Part shown: positions 1 through 45,300 of the stretch, in pieces | Position numbering within the stretch: position 1 is the stretch's first letter | Layout: each line of letters starts with the position of its first letter | Source: Escherichia phage vB_Eco_F22 | DNA length: 64,000 nt | Sequence record: OP870143.1 | Strand: one strand, 5' to 3' | Made by a program: the position numbers and the translations under genes | Notes under the pieces: model-generated | Told to the model about the DNA's origin: nothing | Seen by the model: the letters and a program-made list of their open reading frames with translations, nothing else | The model's database searches: none

Positions 1-210
1 TTTCTCTGCCATAGTAGATACATATGAGTTAAGCATACCTACTGCTTTAGTAGCAGTACCAAATGTATCTGCAACAGTAGTAGCAGCAGAGTTAACAGTA
101 CCAAGTAAAGTTCCTGCGGTCATACGTACAGTAGCGGTAGTAGTCATGATGATAGCTCCAATAGTTGATGATAGGACGACATGTCCATAGGTTGCGGAGC
201 AACGTGTAAC
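1..210. repeat. Left arm of a perfect 210-bp inverted repeat (reverse complement of 304..513); truncated by the window edge
   Basis: Manual reverse-complement comparison: 1..210 matches 304..513 exactly, symmetry axis near 257; the 93-bp spacer is itself partly palindromic. Confidence 0.85.
191..203 (-). promoter_or_regulatory. Mirror copy of the 311..323 hairpin motif on the minus strand, directing leftward
   Basis: Lies in the left arm of the inverted repeat; a minus-strand ATG at 145..147 opens a reading frame running off the window start. Confidence 0.3.
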
Positions 211-303
211 ATGTAAAGTGGTGTGGCAGGGGCTACACCCTTACACTCAACCATCCCCCCCGGTATGTTGACCGTGTAGCCACTACCCTACCCCACCTTA
301 CAC

Positions 304-513
304 GTTACACGTTGCTCCGCAACCTATGGACATGTCGTCCTATCATCAACTATTGGAGCTATCATCATGACTACTACCGCTACTGTACGTATGACCGCAG
401 GAACTTTACTTGGTACTGTTAACTCTGCTGCTACTACTGTTGCAGATACATTTGGTACTGCTACTAAAGCAGTAGGTATGCTTAACTCATATGTATCTAC
501 TATGGCAGAGAAA
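304..513. repeat. Right arm of the 210-bp inverted repeat; contains a hairpin motif and the first 49 codons of ORF 367..690
   Basis: Exact reverse complement of 1..210. Confidence 0.85.
311..323 (+). promoter_or_regulatory. Hairpin motif GTTGC-TCC-GCAAC upstream of ORF 367..690; candidate virion-RNAP-type hairpin promoter
   Basis: 5-bp GC-rich stem with 3-nt TCC loop, followed by ctatGGAc; same family as motifs at 929, 1242 and 5106. Confidence 0.4.
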
Positions 514-690
514 CAAGCCATTCGTACTAAATTAGAAATGCATACATTCGTAAACAAATTAGCTGAAGAAACAGCTATGAACGAGACTATGCGTAAGAAA
601 AGTATTGAAGAATTCTGCAAAGATTCAGAGAACGCTCGTATCTATAACGCAGAATATTCAAAAGTAATCGACATCCTGACTAAAGACTAA
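367..690 (+). CDS. Hypothetical early protein (107 aa); 5' 147 nt duplicated in inverted orientation at 1..147
   Basis: ORF with GGAG 9 nt upstream of ATG; followed by a terminator hairpin. Confidence 0.5.
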   Translation: MTTTATVRMTAGTLLGTVNSAATTVADTFGTATKAVGMLNSYVSTMAEKQAIRTKLEMHTFVNKLAEETAMNETMRKKSIEEFCKDSENARIYNAEYSKVIDILTKD

Positions 691-696
691 ATCAAT

Positions 697-724
697 AGGA
701 GGCTCTTCGGAGTCTCCTTTTATA
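697..724 (+). terminator. Intrinsic terminator
   Basis: Hairpin AGGAGGCTC-TTCG-GAGTCTCCT followed by TTTTAT. Confidence 0.6.
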
Positions 725-777
725 AACATTAGATAGATAGTCTATTTTGCATAAAAAGTTAAAAGAGAATCCTACTA

Positions 778-924
778 TGAGCAAACTAGAAAACGCATTT
801 ATCCTGACTGTTTGTGTACTTGCAATTGTTACTTTGGTTTCCATTCACATTGGGAAACCTCTGGTAAATACTGACTATGGCAATGGTCAAAAAGTAAAAT
901 CCATCTTGCTAATGGATAAGTAAA
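778..924 (+). CDS. Possible small hydrophobic protein (about 48 aa), not in the ORF track
   Basis: ATG..TAA read by eye in the 690-976 gap; predicted single hydrophobic helix; weak RBS. Confidence 0.2.
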
Positions 925-928
925 AACC

Positions 929-941
929 GCTGTTCCACAGC
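929..941 (+). promoter_or_regulatory. Hairpin motif GCTGT-TCC-ACAGC upstream of ORF 976..1191
   Basis: 5-bp stem, TCC loop, followed by ttacGGATa; member of the repeated motif family. Confidence 0.4.
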
Positions 942-975
942 TTACGGATACATTTCAACCAATTAGGAGACATCC

Positions 976-1191
976 ATGCACACAGAAAATATCCGTATAA
1001 TTGAGAATTGCTTTAGTAACAAACCAGTAGACCTCAGCAACGCAAGAAGGTCTACTGATAAAGAGTATGGAGAGTTTCTATCCTTACTCGATGAGTATCG
1101 TATGCAAGGGCATGTTGAATTACATGCCTATCTGCATAACTCAGGCTACTTCATGGATAAACTGGAATCTGAAACAGGCTGTCCATTCTAA
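976..1191 (+). CDS. Hypothetical early protein (71 aa)
   Basis: ORF with AGGAG RBS; downstream of hairpin motif at 929. Confidence 0.5.
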   Translation: MHTENIRIIENCFSNKPVDLSNARRSTDKEYGEFLSLLDEYRMQGHVELHAYLHNSGYFMDKLESETGCPF

Positions 1192-1241
1192 GTAAACAAT
1201 TCCCTCTTAAGAGGGAATCAGCACAGAGTGCTTAAAACCAG

Positions 1242-1256
1242 GGCTGCTCCGCAGCC
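1242..1256 (+). promoter_or_regulatory. Hairpin motif GGCTGC-TCC-GCAGCC upstream of ORF 1269..1751
   Basis: 6-bp stem, TCC loop, followed by tttGGATgattt then ATG at 1269. Confidence 0.45.
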
Positions 1257-1268
1257 TTTGGATGATTT

Positions 1269-1751
1269 ATGCATCCACTAATCATTGAAATCTTAAGTCT
1301 TTTCTTGGGTTTAGTCACCGACGGACAAACCCATAAATCAAACAATCATTTATCTGGAGAGTACAAAATGTCTATTCAAAAATTCACTTTCGGTCAATCT
1401 AACCCTGCTGCTACCACTGAAACTAAAACTGCTAAGCCTAAAGCTCAGTTCTGGTTGAACATTGGTTATATTGCTAATGAAGGCTCTGAAGATGAGAAGT
1501 TCATCTCTCTGCCTACTGGTATTCCACTGGATACTCAGGAACCACTGCCTACTAATAGCAGCAATGCTGACTTCCGTGCTATGCGTTGTGCACAGAACGA
1601 CTTGCTGGAACAGTTAATCGAATATGCTCAGAACCTGGAACCAGGTGAAGAAGGTATCATTAACCTGCAAGTTCAACTACGTCGTGTGAAAGCAGAGGCT
1701 GCTGACATCCCAGCAGACGAGAATAAATATGCTCGTAAACTGACTTTCTAA
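1269..1751 (+). CDS. Hypothetical early protein (160 aa; alternative start at 1368 with GGAG RBS gives 127 aa)
   Basis: ORF immediately downstream of hairpin motif at 1242; terminator hairpin at 1761..1790. Confidence 0.5.
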
Positions 1752-1760
1752 TCAACAACT

Positions 1761-1790
1761 GGACTCCCTTCGGGGAGTCTTTTATTTTTA
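1761..1790 (+). terminator. Intrinsic terminator
   Basis: Hairpin GGACTCCC-TTCG-GGGAGTC followed by TTTTATTTTT. Confidence 0.7.
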
Positions 1791-1894
1791 ACTAGACGAT
1801 AAGCTATTTCTACTTTTTGAGTATCTTTAGACGAAGGGTACTGAAACAGTAACCAGATAGATATAGATTTATATTAGATGAAGGAGTAACCACT

Positions 1895-2191
1895 ATGCGT
1901 ACATTATGTAACCGTTATAACTCACAAAAGTTGATTGATACGTTGCAACCTTGGGGTAGTAAGATGTCACTGAATGCTCGCTGGCAGGTAAGTGTAAAAG
2001 ATGAAAACGGTCACTGCTATGACCACTTCTTTGTAACTAAACCTACTCGTAAACAAATCCGTAAACTTCACAATGTGCAAAAACATTACCTATCACAAAA
2101 ATGCTATGAGTGTGGTAAGAGAATAGAACTAGGTAAAGAATTTACTTTTGATGATCTCAACTATGCTCACACTGACTGCCTGAAAGGATAA
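1895..2191 (+). CDS. Hypothetical Cys/His-rich protein (98 aa), possible zinc-binding
   Basis: ORF with GGAG RBS; HCYDH...CYECGKR...HTDC pattern. Confidence 0.5.
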   Translation: MRTLCNRYNSQKLIDTLQPWGSKMSLNARWQVSVKDENGHCYDHFFVTKPTRKQIRKLHNVQKHYLSQKCYECGKRIELGKEFTFDDLNYAHTDCLKG

Positions 2192-2195
2192 GACT

Positions 2196-2414
2196 ATGCT
2201 GGACTTCATTGCGTTTGTAATACTCTGCTCTGTACTGTATCGCCTGCGTGGTTACATCCTCAATGGAGCCAAGTGGGTAAGAACTAAGTTGGTACTTATC
2301 TGTAAGTTACCCGTTGTATTCGTTAAGTGTCTGTTTGCTTCCATAGTAGCTAAAGAAGTTCGTAAGCAACTCTGGGCTAAAGAAGCAGAAGAGTTTGCAA
2401 AGAGGAACCAGTGA
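2196..2414 (+). CDS. Hypothetical small protein (72 aa) with hydrophobic N-terminus
   Basis: ORF closely following the previous gene. Confidence 0.4.
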   Translation: MLDFIAFVILCSVLYRLRGYILNGAKWVRTKLVLICKLPVVFVKCLFASIVAKEVRKQLWAKEAEEFAKRNQ

Positions 2415-2584
2415 TATTCACTAACATTGAGGATGCCATTGAAGAATGTATCTTCCGTAGATATCACACTGGAGTACAGAAGCGACACTATGGTGTTGTA
2501 CAGCTCAATGGTTATCAAATGGCTGTAAGAATTGTACGTAACAATAAACCTTTTAACTTTATGTGGAGTACTAAACATGCGTAA
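2411..2584 (+). CDS. Possible small protein (about 57 aa, GTG start overlapping the upstream stop)
   Basis: Read by eye; not in the ORF track; weak support. Confidence 0.2.
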   Translation: MIFTNIEDAIEECIFRRYHTGVQKRHYGVVQLNGYQMAVRIVRNNKPFNFMWSTKHA

Positions 2585-2706
2585 GTCATTAATCATGGGA
2601 ACCAAAGCTGACGTACAGAAGATGAAAGAGCGTCTGGCTGCTAAGCAACAGACATCTGAACCAGTACGTAAGATTGTTACCTTCAACCATCCGTGCATAA
2701 AATAGT
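2578..2706 (+). CDS. Possible small protein (about 42 aa)
   Basis: ATG with GGAG about 10 nt upstream; ends just before terminator hairpin at 2708. Confidence 0.25.
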
Positions 2707-2707
2707 A

Positions 2708-2745
2708 AGGAGTCCTCCAATAGGAGGCTCCTATTTTTTATTTTT
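2708..2745 (+). terminator. Intrinsic terminator
   Basis: Imperfect hairpin AAGGAGTCCTCC/AGGAGGCTCCT followed by T-rich run. Confidence 0.55.
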
Positions 2746-2782
2746 GAATAGTTAGTTATGTATTTAAATAGGAGAAAGAGCC

Positions 2783-3097
2783 TTGAATGAAATAGTATGT
2801 ATACTTCCTCACTTAGCTAAAGTAGCTGACAGGAATATACGGGTACATTTACCCTTCCCATTAAGTAATCCATTCACTCGTAATGAAAGAACCACAGTAG
2901 AAGATATAGAGGTAGCTTATGAGGCTTATCTTCGTAATCGTCTTATTAGTGGTGACAAATTAATTACAGCAGAGATGGAAAGGATTGCATCCTTTGTCAC
3001 AGATAGTACTAAGAAACCTGTTGGTTTAATTGGTACTGAATCTGATGTTAACGTTATTCGTAAAATATTAATGGAGGCTTTAGGTGAACAACCTTAG
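2783..3097 (+). CDS. Hypothetical protein (104 aa; TTG start in track)
   Basis: ORF with AGGAG upstream. Confidence 0.45.
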   Translation: MNEIVCILPHLAKVADRNIRVHLPFPLSNPFTRNERTTVEDIEVAYEAYLRNRLISGDKLITAEMERIASFVTDSTKKPVGLIGTESDVNVIRKILMEALGEQP

Positions 3098-3317
3098 TGA
3101 TGTAATAGTAGGTAATGAAATATTCGTTAACCGAAAAGGTTATGCACGAATTAAGCTAAAGAGTACTAACAGAACTATTGTTCGTAAGGTGTACTCTAAA
3201 CCTTTTAGTAATTTCTCTATTGATGAGGTGCGTATTAATAACAAAATGTACCTCATAGATAGTAAAGTATCTGTATGCCATACAGACGGTAAAACCTCAC
3301 TTGAATATGCTTATTAA
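3084..3317 (+). CDS. Hypothetical protein (77 aa; GTG start)
   Basis: ORF overlapping the upstream gene end; same transcriptional orientation. Confidence 0.4.
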   Translation: MNNLSDVIVGNEIFVNRKGYARIKLKSTNRTIVRKVYSKPFSNFSIDEVRINNKMYLIDSKVSVCHTDGKTSLEYAY

Positions 3318-3329
3318 GGAATAAACAAA

Positions 3330-3551
3330 ATGTTGTTCAGCACTAATTATGGTATTTGCCCGATTTGCAATAAAGGAAGAGGAGTTGCTAATCATAAGAA
3401 GTGTAGTCGTATCCTACAGAAACAACGGAACCAGGAAGAATGGGATAAGTTGTTAAATAATCAGCATAAAGAAGAGAACCAACAGATGGCTGTTAAGGCA
3501 TCTACTCAACGTATTCGCCGTATTAACTATATACAGGGGTATCAGAAATGA
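3330..3551 (+). CDS. Hypothetical basic protein with CxxC motif (73 aa)
   Basis: ORF; CPICNKG near N-terminus; 4-nt overlap with the next gene. Confidence 0.45.
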   Translation: MLFSTNYGICPICNKGRGVANHKKCSRILQKQRNQEEWDKLLNNQHKEENQQMAVKASTQRIRRINYIQGYQK

Positions 3552-3904
3552 AACTAATTGTAGCTGGGGGACGTGACTTCACTGACACCAATCGTATGAT
3601 TGCTGAATTACAGAAGCTAGTAGAATCAGGTGAAATAACTGATTCACCTGAACTTGTATGTGGTATGGCTCGAGGAGCAGATATGCTTGCATATAGTCTC
3701 TGGGCTAATAACCGTATGCCTATCCACAACTTCCCAGCAAACTGGAATAAGCATGGAAAGTCTGCTGGTTATAAACGTAATCAGGAAATGGGTGAATTTG
3801 CAGATGCTGCTGTATGTTTCTGGGATGGTAATTCCAAAGGAACCAAGCACATGATTGATATCATGAATAGGCTTAATAAACCTGTATACATTGTGAGGTA
3901 CTGA
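3548..3904 (+). CDS. SLOG/DprA-like Rossmann-fold protein (DUF2493-like, 118 aa)
   Basis: N-terminal VAGGRDF and central GMARGAD motifs resemble the DprA/SLOG GxARGxD signature. Confidence 0.5.
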   Translation: MKLIVAGGRDFTDTNRMIAELQKLVESGEITDSPELVCGMARGADMLAYSLWANNRMPIHNFPANWNKHGKSAGYKRNQEMGEFADAAVCFWDGNSKGTKHMIDIMNRLNKPVYIVRY

Positions 3905-4162
3905 GTGATTATTACATTCCCTGTAACTAAATCATTTAACTATATGGGACAAACTATTGAAGTCCCATTATGGGTTAAATATGTAGCATTATTACCTCGT
4001 CCTCAGAAAAGCAAGAATGCCTCACTAATTGGATTTAGTAGAAAGCCTAAGCTAACCGAAAACTGTATTTGGAAGTCTAGTGGTAGACAAGAGGAAATTG
4101 GTTTTTGTGACTATGTGCTTCAACCAAATACAGTATATCTAACTCTGGAGAAAGTAGAGTGA
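3905..4162 (+). CDS. Hypothetical protein (85 aa; GTG start)
   Basis: ORF tightly packed with neighbours. Confidence 0.4.
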   Translation: MIITFPVTKSFNYMGQTIEVPLWVKYVALLPRPQKSKNASLIGFSRKPKLTENCIWKSSGRQEEIGFCDYVLQPNTVYLTLEKVE

Positions 4163-4479
4163 ATAACATTGTAGTAGTACATGATAATACATTTACTGAT
4201 GTCGATAAGATGATGCGTAATATTGATTACGTATCTCAGACTAGTAAAGCATTCAATGAAGAGTTCACTATTTACTGTGAACCAGAGTCACCACTGGTTC
4301 CTGTATTAAAGGAAGCAGGTCTACCGTTCTCTACAGAGAACTTCCCAGAAGAACCAGAGTACATGATTACATTCATATATGACTTACATGATGGCTCACA
4401 TGCCAGTGAACTAGCCATGAACCAATGGCGTAGTAAACGTCCTGTATTCGCATTTCAGGTACTTAAACCAAAGGATTAA
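4159..4479 (+). CDS. Hypothetical protein (106 aa; GTG start)
   Basis: ORF with 4-nt overlap to the upstream gene. Confidence 0.45.
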   Translation: MNNIVVVHDNTFTDVDKMMRNIDYVSQTSKAFNEEFTIYCEPESPLVPVLKEAGLPFSTENFPEEPEYMITFIYDLHDGSHASELAMNQWRSKRPVFAFQVLKPKD

Positions 4480-4483
4480 TCAA

Positions 4484-4843
4484 ATGAAAGAGATATTCGT
4501 ATTCACTACTAACACATTAGGTCAGCATACCAATGCTGCTGCCAAGTTAGCCTATAAGAAGCATGGTGCTCGTTGGGGTATGGCCTATGGTCATTATGGT
4601 AATAGCTTTGCCATTCCAGTAAGAGATGGCAATGGTAACCGTATCAAAGAGGGTGCTATTTATGGCTTCATTGAAGGTTTTATTGCCTATGCGTCTACTA
4701 ATCCGCAGTGGGATTTCAAAGTCATGAGTAATGACTATCTGGACCCATACCAATTCATTAATGTAACTGGCAATGTACTGTTACCGGAAGCATGGCGTAA
4801 ACACTTAGGTGATGCTTACAACTACTGGGGAACATTCTCATGA
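4484..4843 (+). CDS. Hypothetical protein (119 aa)
   Basis: ORF; no motif recognised. Confidence 0.5.
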   Translation: MKEIFVFTTNTLGQHTNAAAKLAYKKHGARWGMAYGHYGNSFAIPVRDGNGNRIKEGAIYGFIEGFIAYASTNPQWDFKVMSNDYLDPYQFINVTGNVLLPEAWRKHLGDAYNYWGTFS

Positions 4844-5100
4844 CATATGAAGAACTATGGGCTGCTCAGGTCAGAGCCAGAGCACTCACACGGCATGACA
4901 TCTATTGTGCATTGCAGAACGAATTAAAAGGTCGTACTAAGCTAGGTCACATATCAGGTTTAGTTAAAATACCTATGCGTAGTCTAGTATGGCCTTATCA
5001 GAAAAAAAGTAATGAATTTAACGGTAATGGTTTATATGTACGTATTAACTACCTTGGTCAAGAGAACAGTATTCGTATTGCCTTTTGGACTAAGCGGTAG
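4840..5100 (+). CDS. Hypothetical protein (86 aa)
   Basis: ORF with ATGA overlap to the upstream gene. Confidence 0.45.
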   Translation: MTYEELWAAQVRARALTRHDIYCALQNELKGRTKLGHISGLVKIPMRSLVWPYQKKSNEFNGNGLYVRINYLGQENSIRIAFWTKR

Positions 5101-5105
5101 GCAAT

Positions 5106-5120
5106 AGCTGCTCCGCAGCT
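5106..5120 (+). promoter_or_regulatory. Hairpin motif AGCTGC-TCC-GCAGCT upstream of ORF 5134..5364
   Basis: 6-bp stem, TCC loop, followed by tgaGGATgtaatc then ATG at 5134; near-identical core to the 1242 motif. Confidence 0.45.
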
Positions 5121-5133
5121 TGAGGATGTAATC

Positions 5134-5364
5134 ATGGCAGTATCCATTCAGGAAATCATTGTTAAAAGGCACAAGAGAAAATGGGAAAGCTATTACAAGC
5201 TAAAAGAGGTAATTAATGCTGCTTACCTTAGTGAAGAAGGTTATGCCTGGGTTGAACTAAATAGTGTATGGCCTTGGAGACATAACATCTATACAGACAG
5301 TTTAATCATATTCTACAGCTATGCGAATGAGCATAGTGGTAGGCGTCTAATTGCAAGAATGTAA
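5134..5364 (+). CDS. Hypothetical protein (76 aa)
   Basis: ORF directly downstream of hairpin motif at 5106. Confidence 0.5.
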   Translation: MAVSIQEIIVKRHKRKWESYYKLKEVINAAYLSEEGYAWVELNSVWPWRHNIYTDSLIIFYSYANEHSGRRLIARM

Positions 5365-5386
5365 TTAACTAATTGGAGAATATGCG

Positions 5387-6205
5387 ATGTACTCATCAAT
5401 AGAACATCAGAAGCAGCTTGAAGTCCTATTCAATAAAAATCAATTACTGCCTCGCATGAGGAAGGAATTCGAGGACTCCAAAGAAATTGACTTTAAGGCA
5501 TTCGCTGCCTATTTAGAAATTGATTATAAGCTGCTCATTGATGCAATGGTGCAGATTGCCCTACATAAACGTGCTGACATCCAGACTATGATTGGCTCTC
5601 TCATGAGTCACTCAGATGATGCTCAGTACATCGCTGACTGTCTATATAAGATGGCAGAGAATGACTGCTTCAACTATGACCCTACCATCGACAAATTCGG
5701 TGTTATCTATGAGATTAGTGAAGATGTTCAGATGGAACTGGAAGCATTCCAGTATCCATTACCTATCGTAAGTGCTCCTAAGCCTGTTCTGTGTAACCGT
5801 GATACAGGTTACTACGAAAGCAGAGGCAGCATCATCCTCAAGAAGAATCATCATGAAATGGACGTCTGCCTTGACCACATCAACCGTATGAACAATCAAC
5901 GTCTCTGTATTAACTGGGACGTTGCCAACTATGTAAAAGACTCTCGTCCTAACATGGATAAACCCAAAGAGGGGGAAACCCGTCAGGACTATGAGAAACG
6001 TGTTAAAGCCTTTGAGAAGTACAGTCGTACTGCTAAGGAAGTAATGGAGTTAGTAACTCAAGAAGGCAATAACTTCTCACTAGCACATAAGTACGATAAG
6101 AGGGGCAGAACCTATGCCTGTGGATACCATATCAATTTTCAAGGGACTTCATATAACAAGGCAGTGATTGAATTTGCTGATAAGGAGCTGGTAAACGATG
6201 ATTAA
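5387..6205 (+). CDS. Phage RNA polymerase II small subunit (N4 gp15-like)
   Basis: 272 aa, immediately upstream of the catalytic subunit; size and position match the N4 RNAPII heterodimer. Confidence 0.5.
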   Translation: MYSSIEHQKQLEVLFNKNQLLPRMRKEFEDSKEIDFKAFAAYLEIDYKLLIDAMVQIALHKRADIQTMIGSLMSHSDDAQYIADCLYKMAENDCFNYDPTIDKFGVIYEISEDVQMELEAFQYPLPIVSAPKPVLCNRDTGYYESRGSIILKKNHHEMDVCLDHINRMNNQRLCINWDVANYVKDSRPNMDKPKEGETRQDYEKRVKAFEKYSRTAKEVMELVTQEGNNFSLAHKYDKRGRTYACGYHINFQGTSYNKAVIEFADKELVNDD

Positions 6206-6346
6206 TAAACGTGCAGTAGAAGACTTCTATGCTCATAGAGAGTTGGTACTGAAACGCATCAATGAAGCAATGAAACGTGAGGCTGAAGCTAAAGCTAAGC
6301 ATAACCGTAAATAAATCCAAATGCGAGCCAAGAGGACTAATCTCAA

Positions 6347-6589
6347 ATGAGTAAGCTATTAAAACTGTGGTTAATTAGCCAAAGTGAAAACCGTGGGCAT
6401 GACTCCTTTGATTCTGCTGTTGTAGCAGCCTACACAGAGGAAGAAGCTAAACAAATTAATCCAGACGGAGAATGGAAACTATACACCGCCTGGTGTTCTT
6501 CACCAGATAAAGTACATGTTGAGTACCTGGGTATTGCCACCGAAGGCGTGGAACCAGGAATAGTATTGTCATCATTTAATGCTGGTTAA
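6347..6589 (+). CDS. Hypothetical protein (80 aa)
   Basis: ORF between the two RNAP subunit genes. Confidence 0.4.
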   Translation: MSKLLKLWLISQSENRGHDSFDSAVVAAYTEEEAKQINPDGEWKLYTAWCSSPDKVHVEYLGIATEGVEPGIVLSSFNAG

Positions 6590-6643
6590 TCATCCAATAA
6601 GCAGGCTCTCCATAGTGGGGAGCCAAGAAGCGAGGAATATACA

Positions 6644-7861
6644 ATGCAACTGTTAACTGCCCGTGAATACCTGAAAGTAGATGTCGCTAACAACTATGGC
6701 TTAGATAAAAAGACATGGGATGAACGTATTAGCTGGTTCGATGAGAACGAAGCTAATCTGCTCAATCTGGTAGATGAAGCTGAAGAATCTGCACTGTTCT
6801 ATGCTGGTGTAAACGCATGGAAAGATATGAAAGCTGGTAAGCCTATTGGTTATGCCGTAGCTCTGGATGCTACATCATCTGGCTTACAGTTACTGGCTTG
6901 CCTGACTGGTGACCGTTCTGCTGCTGAACTGTGTAACGTAGTTAACTACATGGGCAAGAATGGTAAGCCATTACGTCGTGATGCTTATACAGTTATCTAT
7001 CATAAGATGCTGGACATCCTTGGTGAAGCATCTCGTATTAAACGTAGTGACACCAAGCAGGCAGTTATGACTGCATTCTATGGTTCAGAAGCTAAACCTA
7101 AAGAAGTATTCGGTGAAGGTATCCGTCTCAAGACTTTTGAGAATGTAATGGAAACTGTTGCTAGTGGACCTTGGGCATTGAACAAGTTCTTACTGCAATG
7201 TGGTAACCCAGACGCTAACCGTTATGTATGGGTATTGCCTGACAACTTCCATGCTGTCATTAAAGTTATGGTTCCTGAAGTACAGACTGTTAACTTCTTA
7301 GGTAAGCCATTCGACATCACTCGTATGGTCCAAGGTACTGAAGAGAAGACCCGTATGCTCTCTGCTAACATCACCCACTCTATTGATGGGATGGTAGTAC
7401 GTGAGATGCTGCGTCGTTGTAACTTCAACATGAACCAGGTGAACTATATTAAGTCCCTCTGTGAGGGAACCAGTGAATACATGGTTGGCTCTGATGATAA
7501 CTATGAAATGGTTAACACACTGTGGTCTAACTATGAGAAGTCGGGATTCCTGTCTACCCGTATCTTTGATTATCTGGACTCTGAAACAATTGCATTGGTT
7601 GATACAGATGTAATCATGGCTATGCTCAATACCATGCCTAAGAAACCATTCCCTGTAATGACCGTACACGACTGCTTCCGTTGTCATCCTAACTACGGTA
7701 ATGACCTGCGTCGTCAGTACAATCAGATTCTGTCTGACATTGCTAAGAGTGACCTACTGGGCTTCATCCTGTCTCAGGTACTGGGACAAGAGTTCTCTGC
7801 TGGTAAGCTGGATGACAGCCTTTGGCAGGACATCCTTGAAACAGATTATGCATTAAGTTAA
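6644..7861 (+). CDS. Phage RNA polymerase II catalytic subunit (T7-like single-subunit RNAP palm; N4 gp16-like)
   Basis: ALDATSSGLQ (motif A), RSDTKQAVMTAFYGSEAKPKEVFG (motif B, close to T7 RSVTKRSVMTLAYGSKEFG), TVHDCF (motif C); terminator at 7869. Confidence 0.8.
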   Translation: MQLLTAREYLKVDVANNYGLDKKTWDERISWFDENEANLLNLVDEAEESALFYAGVNAWKDMKAGKPIGYAVALDATSSGLQLLACLTGDRSAAELCNVVNYMGKNGKPLRRDAYTVIYHKMLDILGEASRIKRSDTKQAVMTAFYGSEAKPKEVFGEGIRLKTFENVMETVASGPWALNKFLLQCGNPDANRYVWVLPDNFHAVIKVMVPEVQTVNFLGKPFDITRMVQGTEEKTRMLSANITHSIDGMVVREMLRRCNFNMNQVNYIKSLCEGTSEYMVGSDDNYEMVNTLWSNYEKSGFLSTRIFDYLDSETIALVDTDVIMAMLNTMPKKPFPVMTVHDCFRCHPNYGNDLRRQYNQILSDIAKSDLLGFILSQVLGQEFSAGKLDDSLWQDILETDYALS

Positions 7862-7868
7862 TAAACTG

Positions 7869-7903
7869 GCCTCATACCTTCGGGTATGGGGCTTTTATTT
7901 TTT
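7869..7903 (+). terminator. Intrinsic terminator after the RNAPII catalytic subunit gene
   Basis: Hairpin GCCTCATACC-TTCG-GGTATGGGGC followed by TTTTATTTTTT. Confidence 0.75.
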
Positions 7904-7905
7904 GC

Positions 7906-8103
7906 TTGGAGGTAGTCAACATGCCAGACATCTATGATGTTATTACTAAAACCGTACTGATAGTTTTATCTGCTATTGTGATACTCACTATAGTTAACGC
8001 CCACAAATCCAAGTTTGCTTATTGCTACTATGGAGCATACTCTGCCGGATGTTTTGTATTAGCCGGTTGGATAGCTTACTGGATTTACCACATCAACAAC
8101 TAG
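7906..8103 (+). CDS. Small membrane protein (65 aa, two hydrophobic helices)
   Basis: ORF between two terminators. Confidence 0.4.
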   Translation: MEVVNMPDIYDVITKTVLIVLSAIVILTIVNAHKSKFAYCYYGAYSAGCFVLAGWIAYWIYHINN

Positions 8104-8130
8104 CCACCCTCAAGGGTGGCTTTCTTTTTT
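8103..8130 (+). terminator. Intrinsic terminator
   Basis: Hairpin GCCACCC-TCAA-GGGTGGC followed by TTTCTTTTTT. Confidence 0.7.
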
Positions 8131-8177
8131 ATCAGCCTTCATAATGATTAGGCATATTTACTCAAGAGGATACATAC

Positions 8178-9011
8178 ATGCCAACCCTAAAGATTGCGTT
8201 TAATAAAACTACCAACGTTGCTACCGTGCTTGATTCAGGTGGCAGTGTTCCAGGTGGTTCCGTGGAAGTAGGTACTTTTGAACATCCAGATGCCACTTAC
8301 CCTGATAGCTTAGTTATCTATCACGGTGTTCGTGACCTGTTGTATAAACGTTCTGCTAAAAACCCTGCTGAAGAAGGCTTCTGGCCTGACAACATCGTGG
8401 ATATGCAATCGGTCACTATCGACATGCAAGCTACTCCACGACTGACTGTTGCTACCAAACTGCCTCGTGTAGTCTCTGCCATCGAAGGAGTAGATGTTAA
8501 CTGGCATATTGATGTAGCAGGTGGTAAAGCACCATTTACTTATAAGTGGCAATTCAAAGCTGATACTGCTGGTGCAGTATTCACTGATATTGATTCTGGT
8601 GATAACGCATCTGCTATCACTGCAACATTGACCCTTAGTAACGTAACAGCTGCTTCTGCCGGTACTTATAAAGTGATTGTTACTGATGCTAATGGAACCA
8701 CGGTAGAAGATACCTCGTTGCTGGCTGTAGGTTACTACGAAGCAAGTTCACTGGTAGCTACTCCTACTTCACTGGCTCTGTCTGTTGCTGAAGATCTCGC
8801 CGCTGGCAAGACTGTAACCATTGCTGCTATGCCTGTTGGTTCATCTGCTGGTACTTTGTCTATCAAGACTGCTCCAGATTCTGCCCGTGCTACAGCTACC
8901 ATTGCTGGTAACGTACTGACAGTTAAACCTGTGGCTGCTGGTGATGCTACTTCTGTTGTAGTTACCAACGGTACTGTCGATGTAACCATCGCTGTTACTG
9001 TTGCAGAGTAA
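8178..9011 (+). CDS. Ig-like domain protein, possible capsid decoration protein (N4 gp17-like)
   Basis: TYKWQF...TLTLSNVTAASAGTYKVIVTDANGTT resembles Ig-like/Big domain strands; position after the RNAPII genes matches N4 gp17. Confidence 0.45.
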   Translation: MPTLKIAFNKTTNVATVLDSGGSVPGGSVEVGTFEHPDATYPDSLVIYHGVRDLLYKRSAKNPAEEGFWPDNIVDMQSVTIDMQATPRLTVATKLPRVVSAIEGVDVNWHIDVAGGKAPFTYKWQFKADTAGAVFTDIDSGDNASAITATLTLSNVTAASAGTYKVIVTDANGTTVEDTSLLAVGYYEASSLVATPTSLALSVAEDLAAGKTVTIAAMPVGSSAGTLSIKTAPDSARATATIAGNVLTVKPVAAGDATSVVVTNGTVDVTIAVTVAE

Positions 9012-34461: not shown

Positions 34462-34535
34462 GTCCACTTAGCTTAGACTGGGAAAGCAACCGACTAATAA
34501 TCGGAAGGTCACTGGTTCAAATCCAGTAGTGGACA
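34462..34535 (+). tRNA. tRNA gene (74 nt); anticodon loop CTAATAA, anticodon tentatively AAT; CCA not encoded
   Basis: Manual cloverleaf: acceptor GTCCACT/AGTGGAC (7 bp), D-stem GCTT/AAGC with GG in loop, 4-bp anticodon stem CCGA/TCGG, T-arm ACTGG-TTCAAAT-CCAGT. Confidence 0.5.
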
Positions 34536-36301: not shown

Positions 36302-39300
36302 TTAGTTTACCAGGTTCATCCAAGGGTTCAGGTTGTGAGCACGTAGACCTTGCCCAAAGCCCCATGAGTAATCCAGCCCACCCTTAGCAGCAATGCTAAA
36401 GATGTTGTCCTGAATAGGCAGACCAACATTACCAAACATGGTAGGAGTTGGAGCCAGCATTGCCATTGCTGCATGCACCGGGTTATTACGAATCATGGAC
36501 ACTGCAACCTTAGCTGAACGAATCTTAAAGTTGTAGAACCACATCAAACCAACACTTTCCATATACCCACGGAAGCGACCTGGTAAACGGTCATAGTTAA
36601 CAAACTCTTCAGTTACACGTCCCAGTGCTTCTTCACGAGTCTTACCTTTACGCTGAGTCAATTCATCATAGATGATTGCTTTAGCGATAAAGTCAGAGTA
36701 CTCAACTGTCTTTTGGATACCCTGGAACAGAGCAGTATCCTTGGTGATAAGTGCATAACGTCCAGCAGTACGTACAGACTTAGGTAACTTATCTGCCAGC
36801 TTTTCCATATATTCGTGAAGTTTGCCTTCAGTAATCAGAATGTCATCACGACCGATACCAGCATCTGCAATTGAAGAGAACTCACCAGCTTCCAACAGAG
36901 GCCAGATGCTCATACGCTTATGGCTATCAGTAATGGACTGAATCTCAGCCTTAAGTTTACGAATCTGGTTCGGGTTAGTAGCTGCACGTAATTCTGCTTC
37001 TGCATCTACCTGACGCAGACGAGATTTCAGGTACTGGTTAATCTCAGCAGTTTTCTGTGGAATGCTTTTAGCAATGTTCTTAACCGGTACACCACGGGCA
37101 ACCATCTGGTAAAGGTTAGCCAAGAAGTTAACAGCAGGTACGACTACTGACTTAACTACAATCAGAGTCTTGGCTTCTTTAACTAAGTTTTGAACCAGGT
37201 TCTCACCACCCATTGTGTACTTATAAGCACGGTTGCCAAATACACCCAGCATAGCTTTCTTGAAGGTATCCAATGTTTCCGGGGACCAACGAGAATTACC
37301 AGACCAGGCATCACCTACAGAAGCTGCACGATAACCAAGTGCATCATTCAGCATGTCACGACGCACCCACAGTTCACCCTCACCAAACAGACTTTCTGCT
37401 TTCTGACGTGTTTCACTGTTCATTAGCTTAAGAGCATCAGCAGTTACTGGGTCCAGTTTAGAACCAAGAAGGTTAACGTACTGGGATTTATTAGAGGCAG
37501 ACATCTTAATGTCGTTCTCATACATGCTATGCAGGTTCTCAATCAACATATTGTTGAAACGCTGAGCCTTAGCTTCTTCCACCTGACGACCACGCCATAC
37601 ACCAATTGCACGGGCAAGGTGATTCTCGCCTTCAATGTGCTTCAGCATGTTAGGGTCAATGGATTGCTCATAGGCAACCACATTACCTTTGTCATCATAT
37701 ACAGGCAGAAGTGGTTCATTACCACGTTCACCACGAGCCAGTGCTTTAGTGATACGGTCTACGGAAGGCTTGTCAGTAATACGACCAGCTACCATCGAAC
37801 CCATCGTAAAGCCCGTACCGATGTCTACACCACCAGCAGTATTACGAACGTTTTGTAGGATACCCTGTGAGAAAGGAGCCTGTGCCTGTACCGGTGCGAA
37901 GTAGTAGCTGCGTGCTGGACCACGGTTAGCAGAGCTACCTTGATAAGTACCCAGACGTACATAAGATTTCTCAATCAAATCTCCAAACTGGCTATCTTCA
38001 GCAACAATCAGATTAACACCCTGTTTAGTCTCACTAGGGATATGCCCTTTGTACTGGTTCAAGGTTGCACGCATATCAGACTTGGCTTTAGCCATTTCAT
38101 CTTTACGCTGACCAACCAGGTAAGAAGTAGCAAAGTCCATTCCATCAACTTCTGTCTGAGCCAGAGAAGATAACATCTCACGGTCGGACTTGTTCATTGC
38201 TTCCAGTGCATACAGGGTAATCAGTTTATCCAGTTGAGCTACATCTACAGTAGAACGAGCAGCCTGACGTTCACCAAGCATACGAGAGATTGCAGTAGCA
38301 TTACGCAGCAGGTTATTACCGACTGTACCGTTAATCATGAACTGAGCCAGTTGCTTAGATTTACGACTAATAAGAGGCCAGTTACGACCAGCTTGTTTCT
38401 GCAAATCTGCTTCCAGCTTATTCACTTCACGGTCAACAATCTTCTGGTCAGATAGTAGGTCACGGATTTCAGCCAGAGACATAGTGTCACGCAGAACAGC
38501 TAAGTCAGTTTTACCCATGCCAGTGTGCATTGCTTTCCACTCATCGTTAGTCAGCTTACGGCTGAACTTAGATGCGATAGTGGTAGGCAGGTGTTCACGG
38601 AATTGCTGACGGTCTGCTTGTACCTGTGCACGAACTGCTTTAATCAAATCGTATACAGAAGCATTACTCTTAGTACGACCAGTTAAGTCATTAACCAGGT
38701 CATGGAAGGGTTGCCATACCTTACCCTGGTTCATTGCAGCCATAACACCTTCAGCTACAATTGCACCATTCTTCTCAGTAGCAATAGCAGCCACCAATTG
38801 TGCAGCATGGGCAGCACCTTTAACCAATGGATTCTTAGTATTAGCTGCAACTTCGCGAGCACTTTCTAAAGCACGAGTAGACAGTGCATCAATAGAATCC
38901 ACCAGATACTGGTTAGCACGATCAATAGCATTACCACTAGGAGTAGCAACGGAATCATAGAATGACTGTGCATTGAGGCTAGTCTGCATGATTGTCTGAG
39001 CCAGTGCATCCATACCTTCCTGTACGTTGGTAGCTTTAGTGTCACCTGCTACACGGGCATTCAAGCTAGACATTGCAGCAGTACCAATGTTAGTCAGCAT
39101 TGCATCAATGGTATTACCGGATTTCTTATCTGCTTTCATAACAGGAATGTTAGCCAGTACGTTACGTACCTCTTCACTTACCATTGCCAGACCAACAAAG
39201 GTAGGCAGTAAGGAAGAACGACCCTGTGCATCAAACTCGATATTGTTAGCACCCATGATGGTATCGAACTTCTGCTGTGCATAGTAACGGTCAGCAGGGT

Positions 39301-42300
39301 TGGTACTATCCGGGTCAGCCATGAATGCTTCAACGGTCAGATTCTTAGTAACGTGTGCATAGTATTCCTGTGCACGAGATAGAGCAGCCGGACTAATAGC
39401 AGCCTCAGTAGCCAAAGCAGCAACGATATTAGTGAACAGGCGTTGTTCCTGCATATTCATAGTGAAACCATGAGCCTGAACATCACGGGTTACTTTAGTA
39501 GCATTCACTACTGCATCAGAGAACTTACCTTTACGAATTACTTGTTGCACTGGTTCTGAACCAATGTAGTTAGTAATCAGCTTATCAAAGGTCTGCCCCA
39601 ATTCTTCCAGACGGGTATTGTCGCCATACGCCTTGTTATGGAACAAGGTAGTGTCCTTGGATACAGCAGCCGTAGGAGCCTGCCCACGCATAACTACGGA
39701 AGAGTTAAACAGTAAGCCAGAGAACATATCATCTGCATTAGCAGGAGCTTTCTTACGACCGAATACCAGACGCTTGATTGCTTCATACACAGACTGAACC
39801 ATAGTCTTCAGTGCAGTAGTCTTCTTCTGCTTACTAATTAGTTCACGGTTGGTTAAGCCCCAAGCCATGTATTCGTTCAGTGCAGCAGCTTTAGCCATTG
39901 CCGGTTCAATGAAGCCATTAGACAAGTGACCGTTAATGGTATTGAGTGCATCAGCATATGCTTCACGTACTGCCGGGGTTTCATCCTTAACATCCAGAGT
40001 ACGGAACTGGTTCATCAGGTCTTCAATATTCTGAACTGCTTCATTAGGAGTACCCTCATAATGAGCCAGTACAGATTCAAAAGTAGAAGCATGTACCAAT
40101 TCATGAACCAGAGTCTCTAAGGAAGGGGTAACTAAGTAGATGGTCTTATCATCAAAGTTAGTCCAGCCATATGCATTACCAGCTTCGGCAGCTTCAATAT
40201 CTTCCGGTGCTGGGCGAGTAATGTTCTTCTCAATAGCATAAGCATCCAGCTGAGCAGGAGTACCGTAAACAACCTTGTAGTCTTTAGCAGCAAGGGATTT
40301 CTGTACTTCTTTCAATACCGCTTGCTGTTCAGGAGACATCTCTTTAGCCAGCTTAGTGATAGCAGTATTAGACAGCAGACGTACACCAGACTTCAGTACA
40401 CGACCAACCTGTTCCATTGCTGGTACTTCTTTAACAGGTGTTTCTTCAGCAGGTACTTCTTTCACTGGTTCTGCTTTAGCAGCACGTACTGCATCACGGC
40501 GCTTATTTAATTCGGCATCAAACAGTTCGTTTAGCTTAGCTACTTGCTGGTCTACAGTCAGACCTTCCAGAGAGATTTTACCGTTGTTCACATAAGGAGC
40601 ACCTACAGCAGCCATCTGGTCAACAGTGGTCTGTACCTGGTTCATTACTTTGTGGCGAATATCTACACCTAAAGCAATGTTACGCAGATTACGTTCAATG
40701 AGGTTAACACCGGATTTCTCAATCATATCAATCTTATACTGCCTGTCTCCCTCAACACGACTGATATGGGAAAGCTGTTCAAAATCTAAAGCGGAACGAG
40801 CAATGTCATCAATTGTCTTATCTGACAACTTATTAAAGTCTACGTTCTTCATGAACTTAGAGAAGGAGTCATACACGTTCTTAATAGGATTGCCCTGCCA
40901 AGAAGTATAAACAGCCTCATTAGCTTTACGACTTGCATCAGTGATGTCATTGATACCAATGTTCATACCATCAAAGATTTTCAGGGTATTCTTCGGAGCA
41001 CCTTTCATAGTAGAAAGGGTCTGCATCATCATGCCATCACCAGTACCAATGGTCATAAATGGAATACCTGCAACACCTGCTTGTGAAGGAGCATAGATGC
41101 TCATTGGCACACGCATACGGTCGTCTAAGTTGGTAGCCAGTACTTGGTTAGCAACATCAGTATTCTCACTGCCAGCAATGTAAAAAGTCTGTGAACCAGT
41201 CTCAATCATTGGAGCCAGTGGAGACAGGGATTTCTGAATTTCATTCAGCTCTTCCTGTGTTAAGAAATCGCCCTTCTTCCAGGTTGGGTCTTTTTCTTTT
41301 TCTGCCAGTTTAGCCTGTACTGCTTGTTGGAACATATCCTGCAATACTAAAGACTGAATTTGAGTAGCCTTCTGCAAGTTCTCAGTGGAGTGCATCAGAC
41401 CTTCACCAACGGTGAACCGGATACTTTGTCTCATTGGTTCAACGAAGAAGTGCAACATGTTCTCTTGTAGGTTCTTAAGAGCATCACCAGATACAGTAAA
41501 CTCCTGGGGATCTAACTCACCAGTCAGAGCACCATCTACTTCCTTAATAAATAACTTACCTTTACGCTTAGCTGGAATCTTACCAGTCAGTGCTTCCATA
41601 GAAGTAAGGAAGGTATCCAGCATAGCCTGAGCATCTGCCTCAGACGCAGCCTCCTTACCAAACAATGCCATAGCTGGGGAAATGCTAGGGTCAGTAGCAC
41701 GTGCTTGTAGAACGTCACTGAGGCGTTCGTAGATGGCGTCAGTAATTGCACTAACCATCTTGCCAGCAATACCACGAGCACCAGAACCATAGATGGTAAT
41801 GGTCAGGGGGTTTTTAGCGATGCCACGTTTCAGGTCCAGAGTACCGTCTTCATTCAGGTTAAAGTCTTTAATGAACAGGTCCATTAGCTTCTGGAGATGA
41901 TCCATCTGGCTCATAACAGGAACGTTGTTACGGTAAGCACTACGTAATTCATTTAGATAGAATTGCAAACTATTGGTAGATGCTTCATACAGGTCAACAT
42001 TATCGTCGATAGAGCAATGTTCGTTCATCGTTTTACCAGCACGACCAAAGAACAAACCACCCTTGGCAGTATTCTTAATCCAATTTGGAGTGAACTTACC
42101 TCCAGTCATTAATACCATTGCGTTGATTGGGCCGTTGGTTACACCATCGGCTTCAACGTACAGAGGAGTATTAAAATTAGCACGGTTATCACTGTTCAGG
42201 TAACGGGCATATTCCATCAGAGCCATGAGAGCCACGAAGGATTTGTTATCACCCAAAGAGGTCTTCAGGATATCTACTGCATCTGTCGGTAAGTGCCCAG

Positions 42301-45300
42301 ACTTATCAAACTCAACCATCATATCAACAGCAGGTTTCAATTTGCCTTCCAGAGCTTTAGTCAACTCTTCAGACATAGCTTCACGGGACATTTTATGTAC
42401 CTTGATGCCTAATGCCTGAGCCAGTCCTAACTGGAAGTCAGAGAACGCTTGGCTATTTTCATTACTCAGGTCAATAGTAGAGAAGGTTGGCAGAATTGCT
42501 TCACGAACCAGCTTACTGGATTGTGGGTTGTTCTTACCAAGCATCTGCATACGACCTACTCGGGTCATGTTATAGCCATAGTGAATGGGGGTATCCAAAC
42601 CATTCTCTTGTTCTTTTAGATGATTAATTAAACCGAACAGAGAATCATATGCCATAGATACTGATAAGTTCTTACCTTCCAGTGATTTAGCATTATTTTT
42701 ATTCAGCAAATCAGGATTAAGAGTACCAGCACCCATTAGTTCCAGAATGCTGTCTCGACCCAATGCTTCATAGAAGTTAACCATCGGCATGTGTACACGG
42801 AACTCAGTAGCCTGTTCAGCTTTCAGTGCAGCTTTCTGTTCGGGGGTATTCTTAACAGCAGGATTACGTAACTGAGTTTGGGCCACGGAAGGAATGTCGT
42901 CACCAAAGTACATTTTCTCTTCCGGATTTACCAACACAGCTTCTTCAATTGCTGTAGGGAAATTATTAATAGGGTCTTTATCAGCCAACTTATTAATAGT
43001 GTACAGACCAATAGTCTTATTAGAGTCCGGGTCAATCTCAGACACATCCAGCATAGTCTCTGTAACTGCACCCATCTCAATGAGGGAAGACAGAATCTCT
43101 GTAGCCATTGCCACTGGAATGCCTTTTGTATAACCCAGTGGTGCATTAGGGTTACGATTCAAACCCCAATAAGATTCAATCTTCTGAGCCAGTGAGCTAG
43201 TAGCTTCGACCAGGGTCTGGGCATTCTCAAATTCAGCCAGAATACTTTCTGGTAACAAGGATGCTTCTACTCCAGTAATGGCAGCTACGTCTTTTATGTC
43301 TTTAATGGCAGCATTCTGTGCAGCAGTCAGTCGCCATTGCAGACCAGCAAGCACGGCAGTCTCTAACAACTGGTCATTGAACTTAAAGGTATCACCATCT
43401 TTTTCAACGATATTCAGCAGTTTGCCACCTACCCAACGGTTAGCTTCAGTACCTTCTGCAAAACGTTTACCAACGTTCTTATTAGCAAGGAACTTAGCCA
43501 GTCGTTCAGACAGAGTAGTCTTCAGTGTTTCCCCAAAGTCCATCAAATCTTGGTAACGTTCTAACACATCACCCGTGAGAGCGTTATTTTCTTTTTGAGT
43601 GAATGCTTCAAAGCGAGCAGCAGAAGACAGTGCTTGCTTAATATCAGCTAAAGGAGATTCAGAACCAATGGTACGGGACTTGGGTTCTTCTGGCAGGGTA
43701 AATGCTTTCAGGAACTGGTTCGGTGTCTTTTCATTGTTATAGACAGGGAACACTGTTTCCATCTCAGAAAGAGGTTTGCCACCTACTGTATAATCTGCTT
43801 TTAGCTGAGCCAGCGATACTTCATCTTTCTCCACGTTGTTAGTGTTACGGCCAGAGGTATCTACACCAACCAGAATCTGTGCATTATTGGCTTCAACGAA
43901 AGATTGAACAGTATTGAATTGTTCAGCGGTCAGCTTTTGATTATCAAACAGTTGTAGGGACACAAACGGTTGTTCACTGCCTTTATAGAAAGTAGAGCGA
44001 ATAGAACCAGTATCCAAAGACATATCACGATAGCCATCATGCCCAAATACGTCAGACAGGCTGATATGGTCGCCATTAGAACCAACCACAGTACCATCAG
44101 CAAACAACCACGGACTCTCTCTACGGTCACCACTCTTATTAAGAGTTTCCTGTGAAATGGTATTTTCTTTCACATAAGCATCTCTTTCAGATTCAGTAGG
44201 TTGCTCAATGGTATCCTCATTAGTGAGGGTAGCATCTACTGTTTCAGGCTTAGTAGTAGAAACTTCTTCTGTTTTTGGGCTAGTCTCCTTAGTAGGAGCA
44301 GTCTTATTTTCTACCACTGGTTTAGCTTTAGGCTGTACAGTAGTAGTGTCCTCTTGCACTGGTGCAGGAGTTTCATCAACCTGATTCACTGGTTCATTAG
44401 TCTGTTGAGACTGAGTGGCATCAAGACCACCTTGACGGAACTCTTTAACTACCTGGGCAGCAGGCTTGTTCAGACGTGAATCCAACGAGGTAACTTTCAC
44501 ATGAGAAACATTAAGCTCCGGGTAAGCCGTAGCAAGTGCATTAGCAATATCAGCTACGGTTTTGGCCTCCAGTCCTACTTGCTGTGCAAACTTAACAGAC
44601 TTGGTATCGTAAGGATTAACACCGAGGCCAGTACGACTACGTACCCATTCACGGGAAGGCGAGAGAGCCTGATAATGAACAGACTTATTCTTATCCGCAT
44701 TCCCCGAAATCAGATGCTCATTCAACGCTCCGACCTTATTCTGCATGTGCTGGGCGAACTTCATAAAGTCGCTCAGATAAGCGGAGGCCAAATCGAAGTT
44801 ACCAGAGTTATACGCAGAACGAATGCGTTTCGCATGTTGCAACGCAGAGTACTGTCCTTCATTAGAACGAGACTCGTCGGTTTTAATCTGTTTACTAACA
44901 ATGTCTTGAGGACGTAAGCCTAGTTCTTCTGCTTTAGCGTCGAACTCTCGTGCACCCTGTAACAAGGCAGCAGCAGATTGCAGGGCAGCACGTTGACGAT
45001 TCCCCAGTGTAATCTTACCTTCGCTTGCGTGCTTCAGAACCATGTTCACTGAATCTGCATCCAGTACTTCTGGAGATACATCAGCAGCCATAGCAATGTT
45101 GTTTGCTTGGGCTTGATTAGCTTCTTCAGTAGCTTTCAGCTTACCTGCTTCAGCCTGTTCCTGAATCATAGAATGGATGGCACGGAATGCACGAAGTACT
45201 TTAGGGGTATTCTGTACGTTAGCCATCAGACCAGAGAACTGGTCTACGATTGCAGCAGCAGGGGAACCCTGTTCCAGATTAGCCAGAGCACCCGGGTCAC

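Follow-up and report, generated by a model that had tools for sequence, protein, structure and literature searches.

Putative hairpin promoters for the virion RNA polymerase in the early region of Escherichia phage vB_Eco_F22

The stretch of DNA analysed here, hereafter the window, comprises 64,000 nucleotides (nt) of Escherichia phage vB_Eco_F22 (OP870143.1). Its early region carries four short DNA hairpins, each standing upstream of an early open reading frame (ORF), and we consider it highly probable that the virion-encapsidated RNA polymerase (vRNAP) uses these as early promoters, in the way known from coliphage N4. This class of vRNAP hairpin promoter has been known since the 1980s. Judged from its sequence, the window is a G7C-like, N4-like coliphage genome of the genus Gamaleyavirus (Schitoviridae, Enquatrovirinae), which is sister to that of coliphage N4. 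Escherichia phage E20 matches bases 293-6000 at 99.9% identity, and the same early region is 87-92% identical to G7C, EC1-UPM, St11Ph5 and other Gamaleyavirus. The hairpins and the neighbouring features are listed in Table 1.

Table 1. Hairpin sites, genes and terminators of the window, with the N4 promoters used for comparison
Feature	Genome	Coordinates	Strand	Details
Predicted P1 orthologue, site 317	Window	311..330	+	hairpin 311-323 GTTGC-TCC-GCAAC; loop centre 317; predicted +1 G 328 (GGAC)
Extra non-canonical candidate, site 935	Window	929..948	+	hairpin 929-941 GCTGT-TCC-ACAGC; loop centre 935; predicted +1 G 946 (GGAT)
Predicted P2 orthologue, site 1249	Window	1242..1262	+	hairpin 1242-1256 GGCTGC-TCC-GCAGCC; loop centre 1249; predicted +1 G 1260 (GGAT)
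Predicted P3 orthologue, site 5113	Window	5106..5126	+	hairpin 5106-5120 AGCTGC-TCC-GCAGCT; loop centre 5113; predicted +1 G 5124 (GGAT)
P1	N4	centre 96	+	GTTGC-TTC-GCAAC-ttat-GGAC; before gp1
P2	N4	centre 565	+	AAGAAGC-TCC-GCTTCTT-tt-GGAT; 10 nt before gp2
P3	N4	centre 4554	+	AAGCTGC-TCC-GCAGCTT-tt-GGTA; before gp15
vRNAP, gp50 homologue	Window	36302..47131	-	66.5% identity to N4 gp50, 70% in the polymerase domain
gp1 homologue, first early gene	Window	367..690	+	107 aa; 66% identity to N4 gp1; Pfam PF26891 Phage_N4_Gp1 recorded for the identical protein
Intrinsic terminator after gp1	Window	697..724	+	9-bp stem, then UUUUAU; -14.7 kcal/mol, z -3.95
ORF like G7C gp1.2	Window	976..1191	+	71 aa; AGGAGA ribosome-binding site upstream; no N4 homologue
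gp2 homologue, cofactor of the middle RNA polymerase	Window	1269..1751	+	160 aa; 68% identity to N4 gp2, residues 1-160
Intrinsic terminator after gp2	Window	1761..1790	+
Intrinsic terminator	Window	2708-2744
Predicted P3 transcription unit	Window	5134..7861	+	76-aa ORF 5134-5364; gp15 homologue 5387-6205; small ORFs; gp16 homologue 6644-7861
Strong intrinsic terminator after gp16, end of early region	Window	7868..7903	+	-19.6 kcal/mol, z -5.1
Inverted duplicate of 291-513	Window	1..223	-	mirrored P1 (191-203) and 5' part of gp1; outside the conserved left terminus at 224

In N4, the vRNAP promoter is a hairpin of the template strand with a 3-nt loop, in which -11A/G, -10G, -8G and +1C are specifically recognised (PMC4496689). 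Mutagenesis of N4 indicated that extrusion of the hairpin needs a G:C loop-closing pair as well as the 3'A and 5'G of the loop; W129 and R119 read -11G, K114 reads -10G, D901 contacts -9C/-10G and R904 contacts -8G, while the spacer acts as a ruler free of base contacts and the RNA starts 8 nt beyond -8 (PMC4496689). The early promoters P1-P3 of N4 are the subject of Haynes & Rothman-Denes 1985, Glucksmann et al. 1992, Davydova et al. 2007 and Gleghorn et al. 2008, as reviewed in PMC4496689. The N4 P2 oligonucleotide that was used for cryo-EM in 2026 has the sequence GAAGC-GGA-GCTTC with an AAAA spacer and a +1 C on the template (PMC13492108). When the N4 genome was scanned, exactly three sites were recovered, namely P1, P2 and P3, with the same architecture and spacing as those of the window.

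All four hairpins were found where the sequence-only reading had placed them, and all are intergenic, on the coding strand and inside the first 5.2 kb. They have stems of 5, 5, 6 and 6 bp (sites 317, 935, 1249 and 5113) and 3-nt loops, and the coding-strand loop is TCC at every site, which corresponds to 5'-GGA-3' on the template (- strand). The remaining constants are a coding-strand C at loop centre +3, equivalent to template -8G, and a GGA that starts at loop centre +11 (4/4 sites for each). At sites 317, 1249 and 5113 the loop is closed by a G:C pair (template -13G:-9C), and the set -12A, -11G, -10G, -9C, -8G and +1C is complete on the template; at site 935 the closing pair is A·T. The shared core is looser than the GC-TCC-GCAGC that had been proposed, as site 317 ends in GCAAC and site 935 reads GT-TCC-AC. 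Likewise, the GGAT described as lying 3-5 nt downstream is GGAC at site 317, the constant element being GGA at 11 nt past the loop centre and 3-4 nt past the stem. The next ATG follows the stem at 44, 35, 13 and 14 nt, which falls within the 13-45 nt given earlier.

To establish how unusual the arrangement is, both strands of the 64 kb were scanned for perfect stems of 5 bp or more with a TCC loop and a GGA at loop centre +11. The only matches were the four sites and the mirrored copy at 197 on the - strand, in agreement with the earlier statement that there were no further copies elsewhere. In 300 dinucleotide-preserving shuffles the mean was 0.02 sites and the maximum 1, against the 5 observed, and a chance origin of the hairpins was thereby ruled out. 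Relaxing the criteria (stem of 4 bp or more, loop TYC, +1 G) and scanning the 64 kb separately with the core only revealed no credible site beyond the four and no addition with a C at -8. The sole other TCC-loop hairpin, at 22991 on the - strand, was rejected because it has neither the -8C nor the GGA. Minimum-energy folds of the single-stranded DNA coincided with the predicted hairpins at 4/4 sites, whichever strand was folded. No sigma-70-like promoter match coincided with a hairpin site, and such matches were scarce in bases 1-9000 (11, compared with 24.1 ± 4.9 expected from shuffles), a depletion that fits early transcription without the host polymerase. In the same interval, terminator-like sites were enriched, with 16 found and 4.8 ± 2.2 in shuffles.

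The comparison with N4 extends from the hairpins to their surroundings. Shared between the two genomes are a stem of 5-7 bp, a 3-nt loop reading 5'-G-R-A-3' on the template, -9C, -8G and +1C, an A/T-rich spacer that sets +1 at 11 nt from the loop centre, and the placement of left-end sites before gp1, gp2 and gp15; the P1 stem, GTTGC/GCAAC, is identical. Since the template bases match and the downstream ORFs are homologues of gp1, gp2 and gp15/gp16, sites 317, 1249 and 5113 are, as far as sequence and position can identify them, the orthologues of N4 P1, P2 and P3. The agreement with an N4-type vRNAP promoter, as the sequence-only reading had recognised, is complete in the sequence features at these three sites and lacks one feature at the fourth. 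The differences are that N4 P1 has the loop TTC (-11A) where P1 of the window has TCC, that the stems of P2 and P3 have changed in compensatory fashion, that the window has a 76-aa ORF inserted between P3 and gp15, and that it has a fourth site, 935, closed by A·T and located before an ORF without an N4 homologue, N4 having three promoters.

We compared the sites across relatives, beginning with a set of 16 distinct genomes (N4, G7C, E20 and 13 IMG/VR genomes) that reach down to 55% gp15 identity. The motif, its stems altered in compensatory fashion, was present in the early region of 16/16, with 1-4 copies per genome having a stem of at least 5 bp, mostly 3-4, all of them on the + strand and within the early region. 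In order to avoid circularity, the stem was assessed by searching for the core GCTYCGC-N7-GG only, leaving the three outer stem positions free. This search returned 54 matches on the + strand, and in 54/54 of them the outer positions were complementary at 3/3, in seven stem versions; at the lone - strand match the outer positions were not all complementary. Among 39 distinct sequences the inner five pairs were paired in every one (39/39), no G·T was present in 195 inner-stem cells, and the covariation score was 0.49, whereas shuffles gave 0.14 and slid registers no more than 0.11. The invariant elements were the loop, -14G, -8C and the GG at +1/+2, with -8 constant across 58 instances from the window and its relatives. 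The spacer is A/T-rich yet not conserved across the relatives, which fits a ruler without base contacts (PMC4496689). Ten contigs that encode an identical gp1 protein carry an alternative P1 stem, ACATGC/GCATGT, which represents a compensated allele. G7C has a further hairpin with its centre at 509, between gp1 and gp1.1, that is canonical in form (AACGC-TCC-GCGTT), has a predicted +1 of C instead of G, and is absent from the window.

The enzyme that would read these sites is encoded on the - strand as a homologue of N4 gp50. It had been described as a vRNAP of 3615 aa; its identity holds, while its length probably does not, since the ORF 36302-47149 (-) of 3615 codons opens at a mechanically chosen TTG and translation probably begins at the ATG at 47131; this codon aligns with Met1 of N4 gp50 and would give about 3609 aa. 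The polymerase domain, residues 998-2103 in N4, corresponds to about 1111-2215 of the window's vRNAP. For the residues named in N4 we used mini-vRNAP numbering, in which residue n corresponds to gp50 residue 997+n; the conversion was validated on N4 gp50, where every named residue fits. The vRNAP of the window retains K114, R119, W129, K268, K849, K850, D901 and R904 together with the catalytic aspartates, and K267 of the N4 enzyme is replaced by N.

Based on the agreement in sequence, spacing, strand, position, covariation and enzyme contact residues, we infer promoter activity of the hairpins in this phage by a mechanism in which extrusion, the roles of gyrase and single-strand-binding protein (SSB) and the start sites are carried over from N4. 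The vRNAP would be injected along with the left end of the genome, and supercoiling by host gyrase would cause each short inverted repeat to extrude as a cruciform. Host SSB would then melt the non-template hairpin, leaving the hairpin of the template (- strand) intact. The vRNAP would bind this template hairpin via the 5'-GGA-3' loop (-10G, -11G, -12A), the -9C/-8G side of the stem and the junction between stem and single strand, and the RNA would begin with G at the template C located 8 nt beyond -8, so that starts are predicted at 328, 946, 1260 and 5124. Site 317 would thus drive gp1, site 1249 would drive gp2, and site 5113 would drive the 76-aa ORF together with gp15 and gp16, i.e., the middle RNA polymerase.

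Several observations weigh against this interpretation. The nearest-neighbour energies of the four hairpins are modest, ranging from -3.6 to -7.9 kcal/mol, and the P1 hairpin by itself does not stand out from shuffles (z -0.67). For the ORFs between 1895 and 5100, situated past terminators, there is no dedicated hairpin promoter, so their expression must rely on terminator read-through or on another polymerase. The literature that we searched gave neither transcript 5' ends nor in vitro data, be it for this phage or for any Gamaleyavirus. Finally, site 935 has an A·T closing pair (template -9T:-13A), in the place where N4 mutagenesis calls for G:C for extrusion and where D901 contacts -9C (PMC4496689).

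The last of these points leads to a narrower alternative, namely that only 317, 1249 and 5113 are functional promoters and that 935, owing to its A·T pair, is either an inactive relic or far weaker than they are. To this possibility we give serious weight, a little less than an even chance. It draws on the N4 findings that the G:C closing pair is required for extrusion and stability and that D901 contacts -9C (PMC4496689), and on N4 itself having three promoters only. Apart from the closing pair, however, site 935 shares the loop, -8, the spacing and +1 with the other three sites, and it folds as well as P1. Sites of the 935 type were found in five genomes (the window, G7C, E20 and the loci L009 and L027), in which the loop, -8, spacing and +1 are unchanged and the 71-aa gp1.2-like ORF always follows, with a stem that reaches 8 bp in L009. 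In other relatives the corresponding position is taken by an extra site of canonical form, and site 935 is without an N4 counterpart. Site 935 is an additional, lineage-restricted candidate promoter, probably weaker than the others, as N4 mutagenesis predicts. It is possible, though on balance doubtful, that it is a working fourth promoter despite the A·T pair and that the accessory ORFs exchanged between gp1 and gp2 in this genus move as cassettes that each include a vRNAP hairpin promoter. Should site 935 work, the -9C/D901 contact and the G:C closing pair, deemed required in N4, would be dispensable or would tune promoter strength, and the site offers a cheap test case for whether a G:C loop-closing pair is obligatory.

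It is very unlikely that the hairpins act instead in + strand RNA, as terminators, attenuators, sites for RNase III or other processing, or translational elements in read-through transcripts. Read-through from upstream starts would indeed transcribe them, covariation alone cannot tell DNA pairing from RNA pairing, and a generic scan marked 1256-1242 and 941-929 as terminator-like on the - strand. There are, however, no - strand genes here to terminate, no hairpin is followed by a U-run on the + strand, and the region has separate, proper intrinsic terminators (697-724, 1761-1790, 2708-2744 and 7868-7903). Moreover, the lack of any G·U among the 195 inner-stem cells is as expected if both DNA strands must pair, and the determinants of N4 promoters are matched by the loop, which is invariant, by the -8 base and by the constant spacing of 11 nt to GG. 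An Rfam scan of the window returned no match to the hairpins, the only match being a tRNA at 34462-34535. Weakest of all, and scarcely credible, is the proposal that the hairpins are palindromic operators for a dimeric regulator of early genes that binds double-stranded DNA: they are inverted repeats upstream of genes, yet an operator would conserve sequence and not pairing, whereas complementarity is kept across seven stem versions, the TCC at the conserved centre lacks symmetry, all copies found with stems of 5 bp or more are oriented alike with respect to the genes, and the GG stands at a fixed distance on one side only.

Taking the hairpins as vRNAP promoters, four early transcription units can be predicted. 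The P1 unit would start at 328, contain gp1 and stop at the terminator 697-724, and the unit of site 935 would start at 946, cover the 71-aa ORF and continue into gp2. The P2 unit would start at 1260, reach gp2 after a leader of 9 nt (10 nt in N4) and stop at the terminator 1761-1790. The P3 unit would start at 5124, comprise the 76-aa ORF, gp15 and gp16, and stop at the terminator 7868-7903; its gp15 and gp16 homologues, 65% and 69% identical to the N4 proteins, make up the two-subunit middle RNA polymerase. The transcripts predicted from P2 and P3 (1260-1271 and 5124-5136) have leaders of only 9-10 nt, with no Shine-Dalgarno sequence before the ATG at 1269 or the ATG at 5134. These early mRNAs would be nearly leaderless, and N4 P2/gp2 is similar.

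Two further observations concern the genes of this region. The E20 gene that GenBank lists as an 'integrase' (E20_04; E20 1076-1459, equivalent to window 1368-1751) is really a gp2 homologue called from an internal ATG: it has the Pfam family Phage_N4_Gp2 and is 68% identical to N4 gp2, and the conserved N-terminus points to a start at window 1269. Between gp1 and gp2 lies a variable stretch (window 725-1260; about 1900-2700 in the loci L022-L031) whose small ORFs differ between relatives and include DUF7279, DUF7438 and the 71-aa ORF, many of them with a hairpin promoter of their own upstream. This arrangement suggests promoter-plus-gene cassettes. Farther along the window, the single tRNA gene at 34462-34535 (+; Rfam RF00005, 65 bits) closes the early/middle gene block.

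The extreme left end of the record requires separate treatment, as the sequence-only reading had counted a mirrored copy of the first hairpin at 191..203. The copy is present; it is not an independent one, being part of an inverted duplicate that lies outside the terminus at 224. Bases 1-224 are 99% complementary to 290-513, and window position 224 aligns with position 1 of the G7C and N4 records (TGGCAGGGGCTACACCC...), the left end of G7C having been verified by run-off sequencing (PMC11640937). With the terminus at 224, bases 1-223 lie outside the conserved physical terminus, and the mirrored copy was consequently rejected as a divergent, independent promoter. In E20 and the ten metagenome contigs with an identical gp1, a different and conserved right-end sequence occupies this place (...gctgtagtggtg|TGGCAGGGG). 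The 24/25-mer spanning the junction (223/224) had no match in IMG/VR, in JGI metagenome contigs, in E20 or in the ten identical-gp1 contigs. Bases 1-223 probably arose at the physical DNA end as a fold-back artefact, during library preparation or assembly, although a simple fold-back does not account for three mismatches by the junction (211, 217 and 222). Inside the first 60 nt of the genome, GGCTACAC (231-238) and GTGTAGCC (274-281) form a natural inverted repeat that N4 also has at about 8-15 and 52-59, and through it a terminal 3' end could snap back. TTACAC repeats and a C7 run (254-260) are located near this inverted repeat.

Hairpins of the same kind have been described in other phages. 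For the Klebsiella phage KP8, four putative promoters P1-P4 with the same motif are listed, and the 22-mers of its P1 and P3 are identical to window sites 317 and 1249 (PMC6950046, Table 1). Locus L017 has sites at the same four positions as KP8. The extra site of KP8, P2, has the sequence AAGACGC-TCC-GCGTCTT with a canonical G:C closing pair, unlike site 935 of the window, and the KP8 promoters are predictions, as are those of the window (PMC6950046). In the Pseudomonas phage LUZ7, hairpins with a conserved 3-nt loop stand before early genes, G is the favoured start base, and the starts were mapped by ONT-cappable-seq (PMC9163698). LUZ7 belongs to a distant genus and differs in that its early start sites number nine, its stems have a minimum of 4 bp, and its starts are 13-14 nt from the hairpin centre instead of 11 (PMC9163698). 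The LUZ7 mapping is experimental support for the use of this promoter class across Schitoviridae.

We found no paper or GenBank feature that annotates the hairpins in E20 or G7C, and the G7C genome paper did not surface in our search. Comparable promoter predictions are routine in genome papers on N4-like phages, and the sites of the window are an ordinary, correct finding of little importance beyond annotation. For the phage itself, a G7C-like coliphage, early starts can now be predicted at about 328, 946, 1260 and 5124, and its early transcription units are delimited. For the family, the alignment of relatives constitutes a natural mutagenesis set, with seven stem versions and an invariant loop, -8 and +1/+2, and the result shows that the N4 promoter code and the residues with which the enzyme reads it are conserved across the N4 relatives sampled.

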